Virus record (IMG/VR): IMGVR_UViG_2585427765_000017
Direction: 5' to 3' (one strand)
Length of the DNA stretch: 36,151 nucleotides
Origin: a virus
Taxonomy: Duplodnaviria > Heunggongvirae > Uroviricota > Caudoviricetes
The position numbers were made by a program, and so were the translations under genes. This document shows positions 4,606 to 18,439 of this stretch, in pieces. Under the pieces are notes generated by a model. The model ran no database searches and was not told the DNA's origin. It was given only the letters and a program-made list of their open reading frames with translations. Numbering within the stretch: position 1 is the stretch's first letter; each line of letters opens with the position of its first letter.

Positions 4606-4927
4606 GTTGTTGCAGCGGAGTTGTCACTTAAGCGTATGGTCAACCTGACAACCCGGTGCTCCACAGGGGAGGGAGAATAGTCCCCCTGCCATACTTACCG
4701 CCGCGCCATTTCGCGGATTGCCACAACCGGAAGCGTACGGTCGAATTAAATTTAACGACAAGCCTCATAGGTGAAGGCCTTCGCCGTACGCTTTCGTGTT
4801 ATGCCCTGACTTTTCAGGGATATATCCTTTCAGTAAACTGTCAGTGCCGGATGCTCACCCGTGTCCGGCGCACGCACTCCACCTCACCCGTGGAGAACTC
4901 CTTAATTACCAACCCTCAGGAGGGTGA

Positions 4928-5161
4928 ATGTTAAAATCAACTCTTATTGCTAAATGCCTTTATCAAAATCGCATGGTAAGCAGCATTTCAATAGGCGAGT
5001 CTGCAGTTAAAAGTATTTTCGAAGAGTACTTTTCCGGGCATGATTTTAATAAATGGAATACTAAATTACCGCCAGCAGTTTCAACGCGTATTCTGAAAGC
5101 AACTGAAAGAGCAAGTACAATTCGCGTTAACTATTTCATTAAAGATTTGTGGGATCTTTGA
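4928..5161 (+). CDS. Hypothetical 77-aa protein, opposite in orientation to the surrounding leftward operon
   Basis: Strong RBS (CTCAGGAGGGTGA) directly before the ATG; AT-rich coding; 3' end overlaps the convergent 135-aa gene by about 23 nt. No family recognised. Confidence 0.35.
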   Translation: MLKSTLIAKCLYQNRMVSSISIGESAVKSIFEEYFSGHDFNKWNTKLPPAVSTRILKATERASTIRVNYFIKDLWDL

Positions 5162-5546
5162 TATCCACAGAGCCTAAAGTATGTGCATATGGATGTGCTA
5201 TTGTGCGCCCCTGTAAATTTGCATCGTTTTCTAAATCTTTTGATTTCAACAGAACATCAGCAAGACTCTGAATCATGCAGAGATAATCAAAAGCAGTTGC
5301 CGTTTCTGTTCTGATTGCTGAAATAACATGACCATTCAGGCAAACAGAAATTACCCGTTCATCAATATCGTTTTCCTGTTTTTGATTATCAGAACCATAT
5401 AGCCCTGAAAAAGCATTGCGCACATTACGAACCATATTATCGATGGTTTCTTTTTTGGTGTATGCCGGGTCAATTTTCACCAGACTATCACCGAGTGTCG
5501 TTGCAGCAATTATCTGGATTTCTTTTGGTAAATCTTTAAATTCCAT
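5139..5546 (-). CDS. Hypothetical 135-aa protein between ydfC-like gene and the DicF-like region
   Basis: Clean ORF with ATG start in the leftward early operon; no recognisable motif; absent from the Qin dicB operon as I remember it. Confidence 0.45.
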   Translation of the reverse strand: MEFKDLPKEIQIIAATTLGDSLVKIDPAYTKKETIDNMVRNVRNAFSGLYGSDNQKQENDIDERVISVCLNGHVISAIRTETATAFDYLCMIQSLADVLLKSKDLENDANLQGRTIAHPYAHTLGSVDIKDPTNL

Positions 5547-5568
5547 TATTAGCCTCGTTGGTTAGCCA

Positions 5569-5787
5569 TTAACGTGGGTATGTAATCATTCTGGCAATGC
5601 TTAATGCCGCTGCTTTTTCCAGATTGGTGATATCCTGCTCCAGAGCGGACAGATTTTCAGCTTGCTTAGCCCTGGCTTCATTGGCCCATTTCAGGTCCTG
5701 CGCAGCCTTAATTTTCTGGTGCATCCACTCATAAAGTTCATCATCGGTATAGTCTGGCGCGATGATGACGGGTTCTCGTTTCTGCAT
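5569..5787 (-). CDS. ydfC: YdfC-like protein (72 aa)
   Basis: 72-aa coiled-coil-like ORF (MQKREPVIIAPDYTDDELYEW...) with GAGGAA RBS, in the ydfA-ydfB-ydfC synteny of the Qin dicB operon. Confidence 0.55.
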   Translation of the reverse strand: MQKREPVIIAPDYTDDELYEWMHQKIKAAQDLKWANEARAKQAENLSALEQDITNLEKAAALSIARMITYPR

Positions 5788-9924: not shown

Positions 9925-10038
9925 TCCAAATCTGAATAATTAAATCCAGCACTGTAAATAAAATTTAATCCTTAACCGGAGGGATTTCTGCCCCCTCAGA
10001 ACATCAGGAGGCCGCCCGAAAGGGCGGTGGAGATAATA

Positions 10039-10545
10039 ATGGAAATAACTAAAGAACGATTATTGGAAATAGCAAATCTTAGTGAAAGGGCATTAAGTGA
10101 TGGGAGGATTATTTCTCCTGATGCTTATGAATCAGTTACAAGTATAGAAATAATAACGATGGCCAGGATGCTTCTTGCCCGCTTCAAAAAAGAATATAAA
10201 AAACAGGTAGATAGCAATGCTAATATATATGATATTTTGGACTGTTGGGGAGCTTGGGCTGTAGCTGGAAATAGTTCTATCAACTGGCAGCAAGTGGCTG
10301 ATAAATATAAAGATGTTGTGCCTCATGGTAAAAAATTGCGTCGCCAGAGCAGCGATGATGAAGGGCGAGTGATTGATGAGTGGATATTGAGACTCAGACA
10401 ATATAAAATAGATGAATATGAGTTAATTGTTGCCCACTTTGTAATAGGCGTTTCTTTGAGAAAGATCGCAAAAAGAAAGAAATGTGCGGATGGGACTATT
10501 AGAAAAAAATACAAGCAGCGATGGGAGTATTGGAGGGAGTATTAA
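10039..10545 (+). CDS. Q-like antiterminator homologue (QuuD/PF06530-like), AT-rich, second Q-type gene in the window
   Basis: Motifs ILDCWGAWAVAGNSSINWQ, DDEGRVIDEWILRL, YELIVAHFVIGVSLRKIAKRKKCADGTIRK resemble (from memory) the ERWGAWA...DDD...YVVG... pattern of QuuD-type Q proteins. ATG at 10039 with GGAGA RBS; visibly AT-rich compared with flanks. Confidence 0.5.
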   Translation: MEITKERLLEIANLSERALSDGRIISPDAYESVTSIEIITMARMLLARFKKEYKKQVDSNANIYDILDCWGAWAVAGNSSINWQQVADKYKDVVPHGKKLRRQSSDDEGRVIDEWILRLRQYKIDEYELIVAHFVIGVSLRKIAKRKKCADGTIRKKYKQRWEYWREY

Positions 10546-10566
10546 TGCTCTAACTGTTAGAGCTAA
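10546..10566. terminator. Hairpin between convergent genes (possible bidirectional terminator)
   Basis: Perfect inverted repeat GCTCTAAC-tg-TTAGAGC sits between the stop of the Q-like gene and the stop of the minus-strand membrane-protein gene. Confidence 0.35.
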
Positions 10567-11783
10567 ATAAAAATCTTCGCAAGAAATATTCCTGCTGCAA
10601 TAGAACTTGGTAGCCAAGCCAAATACATAAATAACTTTATTGTATTATCACATTTGGTTTGGCTCTTTGATAGTTCATATAGAGCCTCATTAATGTCCTT
10701 CTTAAGGTCTTCTGGATAATTTTCATTGTTTTTTAGAAAAGGCATAAATGCTATATCTTTAGCATGGTAAATATGTTTTAATTGTTTATCCTGATTGAGT
10801 AATACCATATATAAAATAAGTGAGCTTAACAATACACCTAATAAAACGAGTAACATTTCAGATCTTGATGTTAGTTTTATAATCCCGAAGGATGCCAGTA
10901 AAGACACAGGGATTGATAATACTTTTGTCGTCAAATCAGTAATAAGTTTTGAGATTTTTTCAGCAAACTCTGCTTCAGACTTCGCAATTTCTTTTCGTGC
11001 CTTATGGAATGAAAAACCACTCATATACGTGGATAAATTATTTTCAAATAGCTTTACAAATTTATCCCAATGGCAAATTAGGTTTTCAAAATCATATTTG
11101 TTATCGAGAATAAACTCCACTATGGTATTCCTGAAAATACCTGTTTTTTCTGCTTGATGGGGGATTTGGGCGTTTTTTACATCTAAAAGACTCTTGATGA
11201 TAGCATCATCAATGTCATTTATATTGAGCATCTTAGGTGTAATGCACGTTTCTAAAATAATAGATGTTGATTTTGCGTCAGAATCTTTCACGAAAACTAA
11301 ACGATAATTTGAAGATTCCGATTTTGTATCGTGAAAGTGCGCAATCTCAGCCAGGGAAGAAATAATTGCACAAATTTTCTCGATTTTTATAATTTCGTCC
11401 GGTTTACTTGAATCAGACGGATGAAAATCCTCATCGATTATGTAATACTCTTTAGGAATTACACCTTTCTTGAGTGAGTTTATACAAAGGAACTCTTGAA
11501 TTGAGTTATAGAAACGTTCTGCTCCATTTTTAGGGGATATGTAAGTGTATGAGAATTTATCTCCAATTTTAATTGGGTGTGATTTTAAATCGTCTTCGTC
11601 AATGAACTCATTATTAATATCAACATCTTCAAAATAACCGTAGGCTTTATGTGAATTTACTAACAAGTTTACCAAACGTTGATTGTTATTATTTATTTCA
11701 ACAGTTGCAGAAAAAGAACGTCCGTCGAATTGGGGCTTCGATGATGCTCTATAAAAATCTACAACCGTTGATAAATTAGCCAT
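10563..11783 (-). CDS. Protein with about 280-aa soluble N-terminal region and three predicted C-terminal transmembrane helices; second gene of AT-rich operon
   Basis: Hydrophobic segments VLSIPVSLLASFGIIKL, MLLVLLGVLLSSLILYMVLL and IKLFMYLAWLPSSIAAGIFLAKIFI near the C-terminus. ATG (MANLSTVV) overlaps the upstream gene stop as ATGGCTAA; the track GTG start at 11795 is less likely. K/N/I/D-rich composition. Confidence 0.7.
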   Translation of the reverse strand: MANLSTVVDFYRASSKPQFDGRSFSATVEINNNNQRLVNLLVNSHKAYGYFEDVDINNEFIDEDDLKSHPIKIGDKFSYTYISPKNGAERFYNSIQEFLCINSLKKGVIPKEYYIIDEDFHPSDSSKPDEIIKIEKICAIISSLAEIAHFHDTKSESSNYRLVFVKDSDAKSTSIILETCITPKMLNINDIDDAIIKSLLDVKNAQIPHQAEKTGIFRNTIVEFILDNKYDFENLICHWDKFVKLFENNLSTYMSGFSFHKARKEIAKSEAEFAEKISKLITDLTTKVLSIPVSLLASFGIIKLTSRSEMLLVLLGVLLSSLILYMVLLNQDKQLKHIYHAKDIAFMPFLKNNENYPEDLKKDINEALYELSKSQTKCDNTIKLFMYLAWLPSSIAAGIFLAKIFI

Positions 11784-12918
11784 TTTCTTTTCCACTATCC
11801 CTTATTTTTAAATTTTCTTTTACCACAGCGCTTAGTTTAGCCTTAAATTCAGCTGGTAAGTTTGTAAATGATAATCTTCCAGTTGTTTCATCGTACCACA
11901 CATCATCATCAGCTGTCACTCCAAGGAGAGACTTGTCAAAATTAAATCCAATCTCATCAGTCTTAAAGGTGATGTTTTTAATGTCTTTCAACGCCCGTTT
12001 ACTGATAACAAATTCAGTTGGAATTCTCACATTTTCACTATTTAAAAAAAGAATTAATTCGTGAGTGTAAGATTCTTTGGTAGACTCATCTAAATTTGTC
12101 ATGTGACGTGCTGCAATTACTTCAATATCACTCAATCGGGCTGACAAATTTTTAGCTGCTTGTGTGTCTAAATATGCAATAACGTCATGTTTAAATCTAT
12201 TGGCACATGCTTTAAGTTCTGGTTTTTGGTTAAAAAATTGTTTTGCGACAGTTGGTAGTTTTTTTGTGGCTTTTGCTGCTGCAAGTGATTTGTCGCATCC
12301 TATTGCTGCAATAAAATATGCTGATGTGGATTGACCCACTCCTTTACTTACGAAACTTAGATAACTTAAGTCAATTTTTTCAGACTCATCAGCAGTTTTA
12401 TATTGTTGGTAGAGATTGAAATTTATTCTTGCTGCTTGGTGTATTTTGGATAGATCCAAATGGATCATTTCTTCAGGTTCGAGTTTGTTGCTGATAGTAA
12501 CACCATTTTTCTTTTTAATCATTGCAATTAAAAAGAATTTATTGTTATTTACAATATAGTCACAAAACACAATAAAACCACCAGATGACCAAGGTTCTTC
12601 TTTGGCTTTTTTTACAAGTTGCTTCATCACTTCAATAGAAAAAGGCACAAACTTTTCATTAATGTTATCCTCTGACTGAGAATACTCTTCAAATATTGAT
12701 GGCACAGGCCCTTGTTCTGTTTTTTCCTCTTTAAAAACGCCATAATGTGCAGAATTGCCTTTGGTTCCATATAAAGATGAAATGTCTTGAATAAGTTTTA
12801 TAACAATTGGATTGGTTTTATCGAGAGGAGTGGATCTAAGCTGATACGGCTTAGAAAAATCAAAATCCTTTTTTGCTTCTTTAATTAGTTCATGAACGAT
12901 AACTTGCTTAATTTCCAT
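11776..12918 (-). CDS. NdpA/YejK-like (NA37 nucleoid-associated protein family) homologue; first gene of AT-rich operon
   Basis: VIVHELIKEAK near the N-terminus, GGFIVFCDY and YLSFVSKGVGQSTSAYFIAAIG motifs parallel YejK IALHQLIK, GGFVLFCHY, YLTFLKGRVGRKVADFF as I recall them; AGGTGA RBS 8 nt upstream of ATG. Needs HMM confirmation. Confidence 0.65.
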   Translation of the reverse strand: MEIKQVIVHELIKEAKKDFDFSKPYQLRSTPLDKTNPIVIKLIQDISSLYGTKGNSAHYGVFKEEKTEQGPVPSIFEEYSQSEDNINEKFVPFSIEVMKQLVKKAKEEPWSSGGFIVFCDYIVNNNKFFLIAMIKKKNGVTISNKLEPEEMIHLDLSKIHQAARINFNLYQQYKTADESEKIDLSYLSFVSKGVGQSTSAYFIAAIGCDKSLAAAKATKKLPTVAKQFFNQKPELKACANRFKHDVIAYLDTQAAKNLSARLSDIEVIAARHMTNLDESTKESYTHELILFLNSENVRIPTEFVISKRALKDIKNITFKTDEIGFNFDKSLLGVTADDDVWYDETTGRLSFTNLPAEFKAKLSAVVKENLKIRDSGKENG

Positions 12919-13192
12919 ATTGAAAATATCACCTATGTTATTGTTAGATCGTTTGTGATTTTTTTACCATCACAACAACGACACAAAATCATTAATGCGT
13001 ACGCAAAAATTTTGAATAATGAGTTAATCAATGTCAATAGTTAAACACACTACCGCTGTAGAGTTGTTGTCATTAAATTGCGTCATAAGTAGAATTGCTG
13101 CGGGTGCTTGAGGCTATCTGTCTCAGGCATGAACACCAAAAGGCAGATAGATAAAAGCCCCACCCGACTATAAATCGAAGTGAGGCCCCTAT

Positions 13193-13405
13193 ATGCTCGT
13201 CACATATAGATTGCCTCTTACGGACCGAAAGGTCAAGGAGAAGCAGGCTATGAAGCAGCAAAAGGCGATGTTAATCGCCCTGATCGTCATCTGTTTAACC
13301 GTCATAGTGACGGCACTGGTAACGAGGAAAGACCTCTGCGAGGTACGAATCCGAACCGGCCAGACGGAGGTTGCTGTTTTCGTAGACTACGAATCTAGAG
13401 AGTAA
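13193..13405 (+). CDS. mok: Mok-like overlapping reading frame of the hok locus
   Basis: 70-aa frame that starts upstream of, and terminates with, the hok coding sequence, as in hok/mok/sok loci. Confidence 0.5.
   Translation: MLVTYRLPLTDRKVKEKQAMKQQKAMLIALIVICLTVIVTALVTRKDLCEVRIRTGQTEVAVFVDYESRE
13250..13405 (+). CDS. hok: Hok/Gef-family type I toxin (51 aa)
   Basis: MKQQKAMLIALIVICLTVIVTALVTRKDLCEVRIRTGQTEVAVFVDYESRE is a near-exact Hok-family toxin sequence (HokD/RelF-like from memory). Confidence 0.85.
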   Translation: MKQQKAMLIALIVICLTVIVTALVTRKDLCEVRIRTGQTEVAVFVDYESRE

Positions 13406-14912: not shown

Positions 14913-15278
14913 ATGACTGAACGCATAGAATTTGTTTTGCCTTACCCGCCAACGGTGAACACTTACTGGCGACGTCGTGGCAGCACATATTTTGTATCAA
15001 AAGCCGGTGAGCGTTATCGCCGTGATGTGGCGCTTATTGTTCGCCAGCAGCGGCTGAAATTAAACCTGTCCGGAAGGCTGGCGATAAAGATTATTGCAGA
15101 GCCACCGGATAAACGTCGTCGTGACCTGGACAATATCCTGAAAGCACCACTGGATGCGCTGACGCATGCCGGACTTCTCATAGACGACGAGCAGTTTGAT
15201 GAAATTAATATTGTGCGCGGTCAGCTCGTTCCTGGGGGGCGGCTGGGCGTGAAGATTTACAAAATTGAGAGTGAGTGA
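14913..15278 (+). CDS. rusA: Holliday junction resolvase RusA
   Basis: LPYPPTVNTYWRRRG...RRRDLDNILKAPLDALTHAGLLIDDEQ parallels the RusA PWPPSNNRYY...RRRDLDN...DAL pattern; 121 aa. Confidence 0.85.
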   Translation: MTERIEFVLPYPPTVNTYWRRRGSTYFVSKAGERYRRDVALIVRQQRLKLNLSGRLAIKIIAEPPDKRRRDLDNILKAPLDALTHAGLLIDDEQFDEINIVRGQLVPGGRLGVKIYKIESE

Positions 15279-15829
15279 TCGTAAATATGATATATCCGGA
15301 AATTACAGGCAAAAGCGGCGAGCATTTACGTCTAAAAACGCTGGAAGCCGTCTGGATCCAGGGGAAATTACGGATGTGGGGGCGTTGGTCGTATATAGGT
15401 GGTGGCAAACCAGGAAATATGTTCAATCAGTTGCTGGCATCCAAAAAACTGACAAAAACCGCGGTCAATGAAGCCCTGCGTAGAATCAGGGAGTCAGGGA
15501 TTGATAAACCAGAGCTGGAAGCATTCTTGCGAGAGATGATCGCTGGCAGACAGAAGAGCTGGTTGTCTCACTGTACTGATGCAGAGGCGTTACGCATTGA
15601 TGGGGTGATAAGTAAAGCGCTTGCACGTTATCCTGGATTGATTGATATCCTGCGGCAAAGGTACGAAGGGCGGGGGATGAGTAAACGCAAAATGGCTGAA
15701 TTGTTGAATGAGGTTCACCCTGAGTGGTGCTATGCAACATGCCGCAATCGTATAGATATGTGGCTGAGAATAGCTGAGTTTATTCTGTATCCACTGATGC
15801 GAGATGCATTTTCTTTTACTGACGCTTAG
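15275..15829 (+). CDS. Late antiterminator Q candidate (canonical position)
   Basis: About 180-aa ORF directly after rusA and directly upstream of a short non-coding stretch ending in a strong intrinsic terminator (tR'-like), the standard Q-PR'-tR' arrangement. Sequence family not confirmed. Confidence 0.5.
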   Translation: MIVNMIYPEITGKSGEHLRLKTLEAVWIQGKLRMWGRWSYIGGGKPGNMFNQLLASKKLTKTAVNEALRRIRESGIDKPELEAFLREMIAGRQKSWLSHCTDAEALRIDGVISKALARYPGLIDILRQRYEGRGMSKRKMAELLNEVHPEWCYATCRNRIDMWLRIAEFILYPLMRDAFSFTDA

Positions 15830-16489: not shown

Positions 16490-17539
16490 ATGATTAATAC
16501 TGTAAAAATATCCAGTTGTGAGTTAATCAACGCTGATTGCCTGGAGTTTATCCAGACCTTACCGGAAAACTCTGTCGATCTGATAGTCACAGACCCGCCA
16601 TATTTTAAAGTGAAGCCCGAGGGCTGGGATAACCAGTGGGAGGGCGACGATGATTACCTGAAATGGCTGGACCAGTGTCTGGCGCAGTTCTGGCGGGTAC
16701 TGAAGCCTGCCGGAAGTCTTTACCTGTTCTGTGGTCATCGCCTGGCATCTGACACCGAAATCATGATGCGTGAGCGCTTTAATGTGCTGAACCACATTAT
16801 CTGGGCGAAGCCGTCCGGACGCTGGAACGGGTGCAATAAGGAAAGTCTGCGGGCGTATTTTCCGGCAACAGAGCGCATTCTGTTTGCAGAACATTATCAG
16901 GGACCGTATCGCCCGAAAGATGATGGCTATGTGGAGCAGGGGCGCGAGCTAAAACAGCACGTCATGGCCCCGCTGATTTCTTACTTTCGTGATGCGCGTA
17001 AATCACTGGGAATAACGTCAAAACAGATAGCGGAAGCCACCGGAAAGAAAAACATGGCTTCGCACTGGTTTGGTGCCAGTCAGTGGCAGTTACCGAACGA
17101 GGGTGATTACAATAAATTGCAGGCGTTGTTTGCGCGTGTTGCGGCAGAAAAACATCAGCGCGGGGAACTGGAAAAGCCACACCACCAGCTGGTCAGCACA
17201 TACAGTGAGCTGAACCGGCAGTATACGGAACTGCTGAGTGAATATAAAAATTTGCGGCGGTATTTCGGTGTGACGGCGCAGGTTCCGTACACCGATGTCT
17301 GGACGCATAAACCGGTGCAGTACTATCCAGGGAAACATCCGTGCGAAAAACCGGCAGAAATGCTGCAGCAGATAATCAACGCGAGCAGTCGTCCGGGAGA
17401 CCTGGTTGCAGATTTTTTTATGGGTTCAGGTTCAACGGTAAAAGCGGCGATGGCACTGGGGCGTTGTGCGATTGGTGTTGAGCTGGAGACCGGACGTTTT
17501 GAACAGACAGTCAGGGAAGTTCAGGATTTAATCGTTTGA
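16490..17539 (+). CDS. DNA methyltransferase (N6-adenine/N4-cytosine class, DPPY motif), apparently orphan
   Basis: Motif IV DPPY near the N-terminus (LIVTDPPYF) and motif I FxGxG near the C-terminus (DFFMGSGST). No restriction endonuclease gene identifiable adjacent. Confidence 0.85.
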   Translation: MINTVKISSCELINADCLEFIQTLPENSVDLIVTDPPYFKVKPEGWDNQWEGDDDYLKWLDQCLAQFWRVLKPAGSLYLFCGHRLASDTEIMMRERFNVLNHIIWAKPSGRWNGCNKESLRAYFPATERILFAEHYQGPYRPKDDGYVEQGRELKQHVMAPLISYFRDARKSLGITSKQIAEATGKKNMASHWFGASQWQLPNEGDYNKLQALFARVAAEKHQRGELEKPHHQLVSTYSELNRQYTELLSEYKNLRRYFGVTAQVPYTDVWTHKPVQYYPGKHPCEKPAEMLQQIINASSRPGDLVADFFMGSGSTVKAAMALGRCAIGVELETGRFEQTVREVQDLIV

Positions 17540-17588: not shown

Positions 17589-17664
17589 GGCCCTTTAGCT
17601 CAGTGGTGAGAGCGAGCGACTCATAATCGCCAGGTCGCTGGTTCAAATCCAGCAAGGGCCACCA
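17589..17664 (+). tRNA. ileZ: tRNA-Ile (anticodon CAU, lysidine type; ileX/ileZ-like)
   Basis: GGCCCTTTAGCTCAGTGG...ACTCATAATCG...GGTTCAAATCCAGCAAGGGCCACCA: acceptor GGCCCTT/AAGGGCC, anticodon loop CUCAUAA, encoded CCA; close to E. coli ileX as recalled. Confidence 0.8.
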
Positions 17665-17671
17665 TCACATA

Positions 17672-17748
17672 CCGCCATTAGCTCATCAGGATAGAGCGCC
17701 AGCCTTCGAAGCTGGTTGCGCGGGGTTCGAGTCCTCGATGGCGGTCCA
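17672..17748 (+). tRNA. argN: tRNA-Arg (anticodon UCG)
   Basis: Cloverleaf folded by hand: acceptor CCGCCAT/ATGGCGG, anticodon stem CCAGC/GCTGG with loop CTTCGAA, T-loop TTCGAGT, encoded CCA. C1-G72 start is unusual. Confidence 0.7.
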
Positions 17749-17761
17749 TTATCTGTACCCT

Positions 17762-17838
17762 GCGTTGTTAGCTCAGCCGGACAGAGCAATTGCCTTCTAA
17801 GCAATCGGTCACTGGTTCGAATCCAGTACAACGCGCCA
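17762..17838 (+). tRNA. argO: tRNA-Arg (anticodon UCU)
   Basis: Acceptor GCGTTGT/ACAACGC, anticodon stem ATTGC/GCAAT with loop CTTCTAA, T-loop TTCGAAT, encoded CCA. Confidence 0.8.
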
Positions 17839-18013: not shown

Positions 18014-18439
18014 ATGTTTGGTATTTTCAAAAAGAAAACCCGCAAGGCCATTACCGAGGTGAAGAAGATGGAGAACCGTGACGCAGTGGAGGCGACCGTC
18101 TGGGGCGCGTACTCCATTGCATACGCTGACGGCACCTGTGACGCGAAAGAAATCGCGGTACTGGAAAAAACCATTGCAGCACTTCCTGTCTTTGCGCCGT
18201 TCTCCGGTGAGATTGCACAAATGAGTGCAAATATCCGCGCCCGTTATGAAGCGTCGCCGCGTTCTGCCAATGCCGAAGCTCTTCGTCAGCTGGCTGATGT
18301 TGCCGGTACTGATGATGCAGTTAATGTGCTGTGCCTGTGTCTGGATATCGCTGACCAGGACGGTATCGGTCAGGAAGAAGAAGCGCAACTGAAGAAAATT
18401 GCGCAGGCGCTGCAGTTGCCGCTGGAGCAGTACCTGTGA
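18014..18439 (+). CDS. TerB-domain-like protein (moron at the position occupied by stx in Stx phages)
   Basis: Two ADG/ADQDG...E...L repeats (IAYADGTCDAKEIAVLEKTI and LDIADQDGIGQEEEAQLKKIAQALQL) characteristic of TerB-like domains; RBS AAGGAAAAG before ATG. Confidence 0.55.
   Translation: MFGIFKKKTRKAITEVKKMENRDAVEATVWGAYSIAYADGTCDAKEIAVLEKTIAALPVFAPFSGEIAQMSANIRARYEASPRSANAEALRQLADVAGTDDAVNVLCLCLDIADQDGIGQEEEAQLKKIAQALQLPLEQYL

Follow-up and report, generated by a model that had tools for sequence, protein, structure and literature searches.

Results

A two-gene operon in an AT-rich prophage cassette

We analysed a DNA stretch of 36,151 nucleotides (nt), hereafter called the window, which is recorded as a virus of the Caudoviricetes (IMG/VR record IMGVR_UViG_2585427765_000017) and is identical to an Escherichia coli chromosome record (NZ_CM128603), where it represents a Rac-like lambdoid prophage adjoining potC/potD. 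Inside this prophage lies an AT-rich island, which is a cargo cassette composed of three parts: an extra gene of the Q antiterminator family, a convergent operon of two overlapping genes, and a diverged copy of a late-promoter-like motif (Table 1). The two operon genes, here termed A and B, encode a nucleoid-associated protein and a predicted membrane protein, respectively. Judged from its architecture, the operon is probably a member of type II PANGU, a recently described class of defence systems.

The product of gene A matched the NA37 family of nucleoid-associated proteins (PF04245, 2e-51) over profile positions 1-324 of 325, i.e. at full length, and also matched the E. coli YejK structure 9be2 (3.2e-14). 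Gene B lies on the same strand, its start overlapping the stop of A by 8 nt (ATGGCTAA). Residues 1-285 of the B protein are acidic, with a net charge of -10 and an isoelectric point of 5.3, the N-terminal net charges in 28 family members ranging from -7 to -18. Hydropathy analysis placed hydrophobic helices at residues ~288-306, 313-333 and 388-406, yielding three C-terminal segments, and the AlphaFold2 model, with a predicted local distance difference test score (pLDDT) of 86, exhibits long C-terminal helices. B had no sequence match in Pfam, PADLOC or the PDB. Its homologues formed 45 clusters in a word-based search, and a profile search returned 1107 representatives, of which 213 had E <= 1e-30; among phage proteins in GenBank, a single full-length match was obtained, in Klebsiella phage P7641 (37% identity). 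Compared to the Salmonella orthologues, the ratio of nonsynonymous to synonymous substitutions (dN/dS) was 0.09 for A and 0.16 for B, indicating purifying selection on both genes.

In each of the 28 homologous loci examined, B is immediately preceded by an NA37 gene in the same orientation. The loci stem from E. coli/Shigella, Salmonella, Serratia, Edwardsiella, Pectobacterium, Xenorhabdus, Proteus, Providencia, Ewingella, Pantoea, Pseudomonas, Vibrio and an uncultured bacterium, and those of Pseudomonas include non-prophage contexts. As assumed in the original prediction, the two minus-strand genes form one operon. A Salmonella operon (locus L017) is 94% identical to that of the window, and a homologous pair (54% identity for A, 37% for B) resides in a prophage of uropathogenic E. 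coli UPEC85 and in 37 other genomes.

A Q-family gene and a late-promoter-like motif accompany the operon

The Q-family gene of the island has a GC content of 0.37 and encodes a protein matching PF06530 (3.6e-25, residues 66-163), which an identical E. coli record annotates as 'antiterminator Q family protein'. Compared to the Q proteins of relatives, which comprise 113-119 amino acids (aa), it carries an N-terminal extension of ~60 aa. Of 5426 E. coli genomes, 60 have the gene, which is under purifying selection (dN/dS 0.19-0.30). Q homologues of 43-82% identity adjoin the same operon in 13 loci from Enterobacterales and Morganellaceae, where they are convergent with B and abut or overlap it. 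The prophage thus has two Q-type genes, the PF06530 gene of the island and a DUF1133-type gene at 15275-15829 that precedes the methylase, the tRNAs and the lysis genes. The DUF1133-type Q is probably the true late regulator of this prophage. The extra Q may act at the motif as a repressor of the operon, or may silence the operon through antisense read-through during induction.

The motif occurs once in the window, with a single mismatch. Among the homologous loci, precisely the 13 that bear a Q gene have its 13-nt form TTTTTGCGTACGC, at 77-109 bp upstream of A. Of the loci devoid of Q, Serratia has it with 2 mismatches and Pantoea shows a 3-mismatch match, and it is absent from Pseudomonas and Vibrio. 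The motif is also found in E. coli prophages with the same Q gene and a different cargo, composed of a DUF6731 protein and a 159-aa protein. The motif therefore travels with Q and not with the operon. The Serratia marcescens locus, for its part, appears to be in decay. Upstream of an intact B homologue, its NA37 gene is broken into open reading frames of 233 and 105 aa (L020 4866-5999), the Q gene is missing, transposase genes of the insertion sequence type lie nearby, and the motif carries the two mismatches.

In relatives, the sequence at the motif reads in forward order (C/T)TAACG, an 18-nt spacer with an invariant GCGTACGCAAAA, and TAnnGT, followed by a conserved stretch of ~40 nt and then by a GC hairpin with a T-run. 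A forward intrinsic terminator was detected in 80 of 114 viral contigs, ending at a median of 74 nt past the motif, and a reverse one in 15; the window has no terminator downstream of the motif, where the hok/sok locus comes next. The same block is positioned just upstream of the holin gene in Shigella phage SfII and of stx1AB in Stx1a phages; in an Stx2a phage it lies just ahead of the methylase-tRNA-stx2 late region. In these phages, 2-3 antisense genes are situated between Q and the block. Such an arrangement is as expected for a Q-dependent late promoter with a short terminated leader, and we infer that the block in relatives may have this role, under which it is not annotated in the records. 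The window motif is accordingly interpreted as a putative remnant of a Q-dependent late promoter or Q-binding region. We also considered whether the leader after the motif corresponds to IsrK, which is located downstream of AntQ in Gifsy-1, and rejected this candidate: isrK matches occur elsewhere in the relatives, beside C4 RNA.

The space between Q and the motif is a hotspot for defence cargo

In related phages, a PF06530-type Q gene and the promoter-like motif (TAACGCGTACGCAAAA plus leader and terminator) are separated by 0.7-3 kb of variable, mainly antisense cargo. Of 120 viral contigs with the motif, 95 carry a Q homologue upstream, the gap between the two measuring 670-3065 bp, never less than 670, and always holding variable cargo. 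This cargo comprises 52 protein clusters in about 30 arrangements, nearly all encoded on the strand opposite to Q. Analysis of the cluster representatives revealed Kiwa, represented by KwaB (2.3e-150) and a small membrane protein; NsnA/PD-T4-2_A (GmrSD_N) together with a HEPN protein and a C5 methylase; PDC-S42; and a RelA/SpoT toxSAS protein beside an NA37 gene, which corresponds to the type I PANGU architecture. The pair of B and NA37 occupies the slot in 11 contigs. According to these data, the slot is a hotspot for defence cargo.

The alternative E. coli cargo in the same slot consists of the DUF6731 protein (304 aa) and its 159-aa partner (L002 4662-6071; L003 5670-7079); the partner had no Pfam match at E <= 0.001, and nothing relevant on DUF6731 was found in the literature searched. 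Several further recurrent, uncharacterised pairs consist of a small membrane protein and a soluble protein, two of them with sizes of 182 aa + 308 aa and 161 aa + 273 aa; the soluble partners of these two had no PADLOC match. The same literature contained no description of a cargo slot between Q and a late promoter.

The window cassette appears to be a block of Q, cargo and promoter that recombined between the replication genes and hok/sok. On a more tentative note, a large lambdoid family, including SfII-like and many Shiga toxin (Stx1/Stx2) phages, may have a dedicated Q-to-late-promoter slot in which defence systems are exchanged; the window block would then have moved to a second site, with the extra Q being kept for switching off the operon or for antisense read-through at the lytic switch. 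We regard this scenario as possible, though we would not yet favour it.

The operon is a candidate type II PANGU system

PANGU systems are two-gene operons of a YejK-like (NA37/NdpA, IPR007358) nucleoid protein and an effector, termed Pag2A and Pag2B in type II, and adjacent genes were defined as lying <40 bp apart (bioRxiv 10.64898/2026.04.06.716658, April 2026). The C-terminal part of Pag2B is a transmembrane domain, and its N-terminal part an acidic DNA-mimicking (DMK) domain that binds Pag2A at 19 nM (10.64898/2026.04.06.716658). A type II operon from uropathogenic E. coli reduced T4 plaque counts by 3-4 logs; both genes were needed, the growth curves were of the abortive type, and no toxicity was seen for either gene or for the two together (10.64898/2026.04.06.716658). 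Upon T4 infection, GFP-tagged Pag2A departed from the nucleoid (10.64898/2026.04.06.716658).

The operon of the window exhibits the same layout: an NA37 gene comes first, the two genes form an adjacent, overlapping bicistron, and the partner has C-terminal hydrophobic segments. It is also linked genomically to defence genes, as the same slot holds known defence systems in related phages. By analogy with the tested system, we thus consider the operon a good candidate, and probably a genuine member, of type II PANGU. The operon is not categorically new; as such a candidate, it would belong to a defence class that has only just been described. Domain content, gene overlap, co-occurrence of A and B, purifying selection, the architecture of the B family and the location in the slot were observed directly for this operon.

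Several points weigh against the assignment. The link to the tested Pag2A and Pag2B proteins comes from architecture and the name of the source organism and not from measured identity, and the PANGU class itself rests on a single preprint. The acidity of B is only moderate in the window copy (net charge -10), and the exact operon is rare, being present in 4 of 5426 complete E. coli genomes. The fold of B has no significant relative among solved structures, and the effector chemistry therefore cannot be read from it. A PADLOC v2.0.0 (2023) scan of Q, A and B gave no match, a result that says little because the library is older than PANGU.

If the window pair behaves like the tested type II system, as we infer by analogy, A would sit on the host chromosome and would be released when a lytic phage degrades the host DNA. 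Freed A would then bind the acidic, DNA-mimicking N-terminal domain that membrane-anchored B is predicted to expose to the cytoplasm, and B would in turn arrest or kill the infected cell, resulting in abortive infection.

The main mechanistic rival assigns the two proteins the opposite roles, in the manner of Kiwa. Here, B would detect at the envelope that a phage attaches or injects its DNA, and would release or license A, which would coat the incoming phage DNA and block its replication and late transcription, with no killing of the cell. Both systems combine a membrane protein and a DNA-binding protein. In 8 contigs, Kiwa itself (KwaB and a small membrane protein) fills the same Q-to-promoter slot, where several other cargo pairs are likewise built from a small membrane protein and a soluble protein. 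Moreover, the preprint leaves undetermined how Pag2A activates Pag2B and how Pag2B acts (10.64898/2026.04.06.716658). Against this reading stand the abortive-type growth curves and the departure of the nucleoid protein upon T4 infection that the preprint reports. In addition, NA37 and KwaB are different Pfam families, the gene order is reversed, and in the PADLOC scan no KwaA or KwaB model matched A or B, A being an NA37 protein and not a PF16162 protein. Taken together, we judge a Kiwa-like role reversal to be unlikely.

Because of the strict pairing of A and B, the published non-toxicity and the genomic company of the operon, readings outside defence and as a toxin-antitoxin module are less likely still. 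YejK-family proteins bind DNA generally, the AT-rich island is a likely target for a nucleoid protein, and no model of the defence library matched A or B, so that A might organise or silence AT-rich prophage DNA or modulate host transcription, with B being an unrelated membrane protein such as a superinfection-exclusion or lysis-timing factor. A and B, however, are strictly adjacent, with overlapping or abutting genes, in 28 of 28 loci, including Pseudomonas contexts outside prophages; the slot carries known defence systems elsewhere, and there is direct experimental precedent for defence by this architecture (10.64898/2026.04.06.716658), which together render a non-defence role improbable. 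Least credible is a toxin-antitoxin module stabilising the prophage instead of sensing infection, with B as membrane toxin restrained by A: it would fit two small overlapping genes, one for a membrane protein, beside the genuine addiction locus hok/sok, but the tested type II genes were non-toxic singly or paired, and A, a full-length NA37 protein of 380 aa, is large and unlike typical antitoxins.

The island is a nested mosaic with exact junctions

The original prediction described the region as a compositionally distinct island, and the windowed analysis of GC content confirmed a clear deviation. Positions 10029-13085 have a GC content of 0.332, compared to 0.518 +/- 0.034 in 3-kb windows of the remaining sequence (minimum 0.44). 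Every 500-bp window from ~9750 to ~13250 lies at 0.31-0.40, with 0.49-0.57 on both sides, and the GC content at third codon positions is 0.24-0.32 in the three island genes vs 0.49-0.63 in neighbouring genes. Likewise, the island proteins are as rich in lysine, asparagine and isoleucine as had been noted, these residues accounting for 23-27% of the island proteins and 12-18% of their neighbours. A second, smaller AT-rich patch (~4750-5750, GC content 0.38-0.42) corresponds to two overlapping hypothetical genes that the identical E. coli record shows between dicB and ydfC.

Alignment to related prophages, which share the flanks and carry different DNA in between, delineated a foreign segment with precise junctions. 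The left junction is exact: homology with other phages extends from ~9932 to 10028 and stops right after a GC hairpin. On the right, the junction is at ~13085/13086: from ~13086 onwards, beginning at the hok promoter's -10 element, the sequence is again homologous to that of other prophages. Among 5426 complete E. coli genomes, thousands share the flanks and only 4 have the entire island. The suspected insertion was thus correct as to its borders but not as to its unity. Since the Q-like gene is common to prophages with other cargo, and the alignment places the swap point at ~10527, within the last Q codons, the island is a nested mosaic and not a single insertion.

Table 1. Positions of the island features and of the elements bordering them in the window
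Feature	Position	Strand	Details
Conserved lambdoid intergenic linker, ~97 bp	9932..10028	+	left flank, outside variable DNA
Linker hairpin 1	GAGGG 9979-9983 / CCCTC 9993-9997		
Linker GC hairpin, GAAA loop	GCCGCCC 10011-10017 / GGGCGGT 10022-10028		last linker element
Extra Q-family antiterminator gene	10039..10545	+	168 aa from RefSeq ATG; alternative GTG start 10027
Palindrome GCTCTAAC-t-GTTAGAGC	10547..10563	.	17-bp gap between convergent stop codons
Gene B, candidate Pag2B-like effector, 406 aa	10563..11783	-	
Gene A, YejK/NdpA-type 37-kDa nucleoid-associated protein, candidate Pag2A-like sensor, 380 aa	11776..12918	-	PF04245
Inverted repeat TTGTGAT-N9-ATCACAA	12953..12975	.	operon leader
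Diverged motif copy	12992..13020	+	core TAATGCGTACGCAAAA at 12993-13008; TTAATG (12992-12997), 17 nt, AATAAT (13015-13020)
Candidate A-B promoter	13009..13037	-	TTGACA (13037-13032), 17 nt, CAAAAT (13014-13009); predicted leader ~80 nt
hok/sok (mok) type I toxin-antitoxin locus	13086..13405	+	right flank

Border elements and small features of the operon

All small features of the original prediction were recovered, at its positions or 1-2 bases away from them, with uneven statistical support. The two stem-loops at the left edge, which had been read as structures bounding the island, in fact belong to the ~97-bp linker that precedes many unrelated genes in lambdoid phages. The linker is nearly invariant and is found in at least 120 viral contigs as 49 sequence variants with up to three hairpins per element, and in one Stx phage it sits in a different genome region. 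It is followed by 34 distinct 30-nt sequences, representing at least 9 unrelated gene starts, and stands directly before start codons. In folding energy, the left stem-loops do not stand out from shuffled sequence (z = -1.2). Scanning Rfam at its gathering threshold across the complete window, and at E <= 10 at both borders, returned only sok and three tRNAs, with no match for the linker or the leader. Nearly every linker variant is a single C-to-T change that gives a G.U pair, and in no case have both partners of a pair changed, such that covariation speaks neither for nor against an RNA structure. The linker contains TCCTTAAC, which we take to be boxA-like.

Between the convergent genes, the palindrome forms the perfect hairpin that had been predicted, with a 7-bp stem containing 3 GC pairs, a 3-nt loop and folding energies of -7.5/-7.8 kcal/mol on the two strands (z = -2.1/-2.9). 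Its proposed function as a bidirectional terminator is not borne out in canonical form: the hairpin lacks a T-run on either strand, was not listed by the terminator scan, and is absent in some relatives. The Salmonella copy differs in both bases of one pair and has lost another pair; where Q and B abut or overlap, as they do in Edwardsiella, Pectobacterium and Xenorhabdus, there is no space for the hairpin. The hairpin is at most a weak, local element.

The minus-strand promoter suggested for the operon, TTGACA/CAAAAT, is present and is the best match in the region (10/12), and both hexamers are conserved in the Salmonella operon. The number of promoter-like matches, however, equals chance expectation (12 found vs 12.2 expected), and no consensus A-B promoter emerged across genera, this hexamer pair being shared only by E. 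coli and Salmonella. Based on its sequence, it is a reasonable candidate for the promoter of the A-B operon. It overlaps the late-promoter-like motif, which is therefore located at the predicted start of the A-B transcript. The inverted repeat in the operon leader exists as described, but its proposed role as a regulator site fared poorly: 12 inverted repeats of 6-7 bp or more occur within 400 bp around it, and it is not conserved in the Salmonella operon, which has three changes, none of them compensating. It is probably a chance feature. A CRP-like reading of its TGTGA...TCACA halves was rejected both for this lack of conservation and for the spacing of 11 nt, the CRP consensus having 6 nt.

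On the right flank, a complete hok/sok/mok locus is supported by the sok match in Rfam (109 bits, 13102-13252) and by Hok/Gef (PF01848, 1e-22). The putative hok/sok promoter straddles the junction, its -35 element (TTGTCA, 13067-13072) lying in the island and its -10 element (TAGAAT, 13090-13095) in the conserved flank. The remaining prophage contains racR, ydaT, dicB, a DUF968 gene, rusA, the DUF1133-type Q, tRNAs, lysis genes and HK97-type head genes. The three tRNA genes (17589-17835; Ile, Arg and Arg in the identical record) are located in the late region between a DNA methyltransferase gene (16490-17539) and a TerB-family gene (18014-18439). This methyltransferase-tRNA arrangement is as found upstream of stx2 in Stx2 phages, and no toxin genes are present in the window.

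Discussion

The operon described here is a concrete, clonable candidate for an E. coli variant of a recently proposed class of systems in which a nucleoid protein would serve as sentinel of genome integrity; an alignment of 28 relatives and a confident model of the unexplored membrane effector accompany it. The most useful by-product of the analysis, and the one most worth following up, is the Q-to-late-promoter hotspot, found in medically relevant phages such as Stx-converting and Shigella serotype-converting ones. In the contigs sampled, known defence systems alternate there with about 50 uncharacterised protein families, and the slot, if confirmed, should be a cheap guide to new systems. 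It also raises the question of how cargo beside the stx late promoter affects the biology of toxin phages.

Comparison with known systems places the individual parts of the cassette. Lambdoid Q units with a pR'-qut-tR' arrangement (lambda, 82, 21 and the Stx phages), as well as AntQ of Gifsy-1 (PMC4825925), resemble the island in that its Q is a PF06530 protein. In relatives, Q is followed by the promoter-like block with its short leader and intrinsic terminator, and the lysis or stx genes come thereafter; the PF06530 gene of the window, in contrast, is a second Q-type gene with an N-terminus longer by ~60 aa, and the terminator after the motif is missing. With the hotspots of prophages and satellites (P2/P4; tai of phi80, PMC11364771), the slot shares a fixed site, swapped defence cargo, conserved flanks and cargo directed against lytic transcription. 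The tai gene of phi80, the closest idea in print, is antisense and embedded in the Q-controlled late operon (PMC11364771), whereas the slot lies between Q and the presumed Q late promoter, upstream of late transcription and not inside it.

Like the A-B operon, Kiwa is a two-gene pair of a membrane protein (KwaA) and a DNA-binding protein (KwaB) that is found in the same Q-to-late-promoter slot of related phages. The two systems have no sequence relationship, NA37 facing DUF4868, and their gene orders are opposite; Kiwa is reported to be non-abortive and PANGU to be abortive. The closest likeness is to type II PANGU. Here as there, an NA37 gene comes first and is followed by that of a ~400-aa partner with an acidic N-terminus and C-terminal membrane helices, and the pair is found in E. 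coli, on mobile DNA, beside known defence systems or replacing them. Unlike the commoner E. coli variant, to which it is 54% (A) and 37% (B) identical, the window pair is a rare variant, and the Q-cargo cassette that houses it is displaced: it lies between the replication genes and hok/sok instead of at the usual position between Q and the lysis genes.

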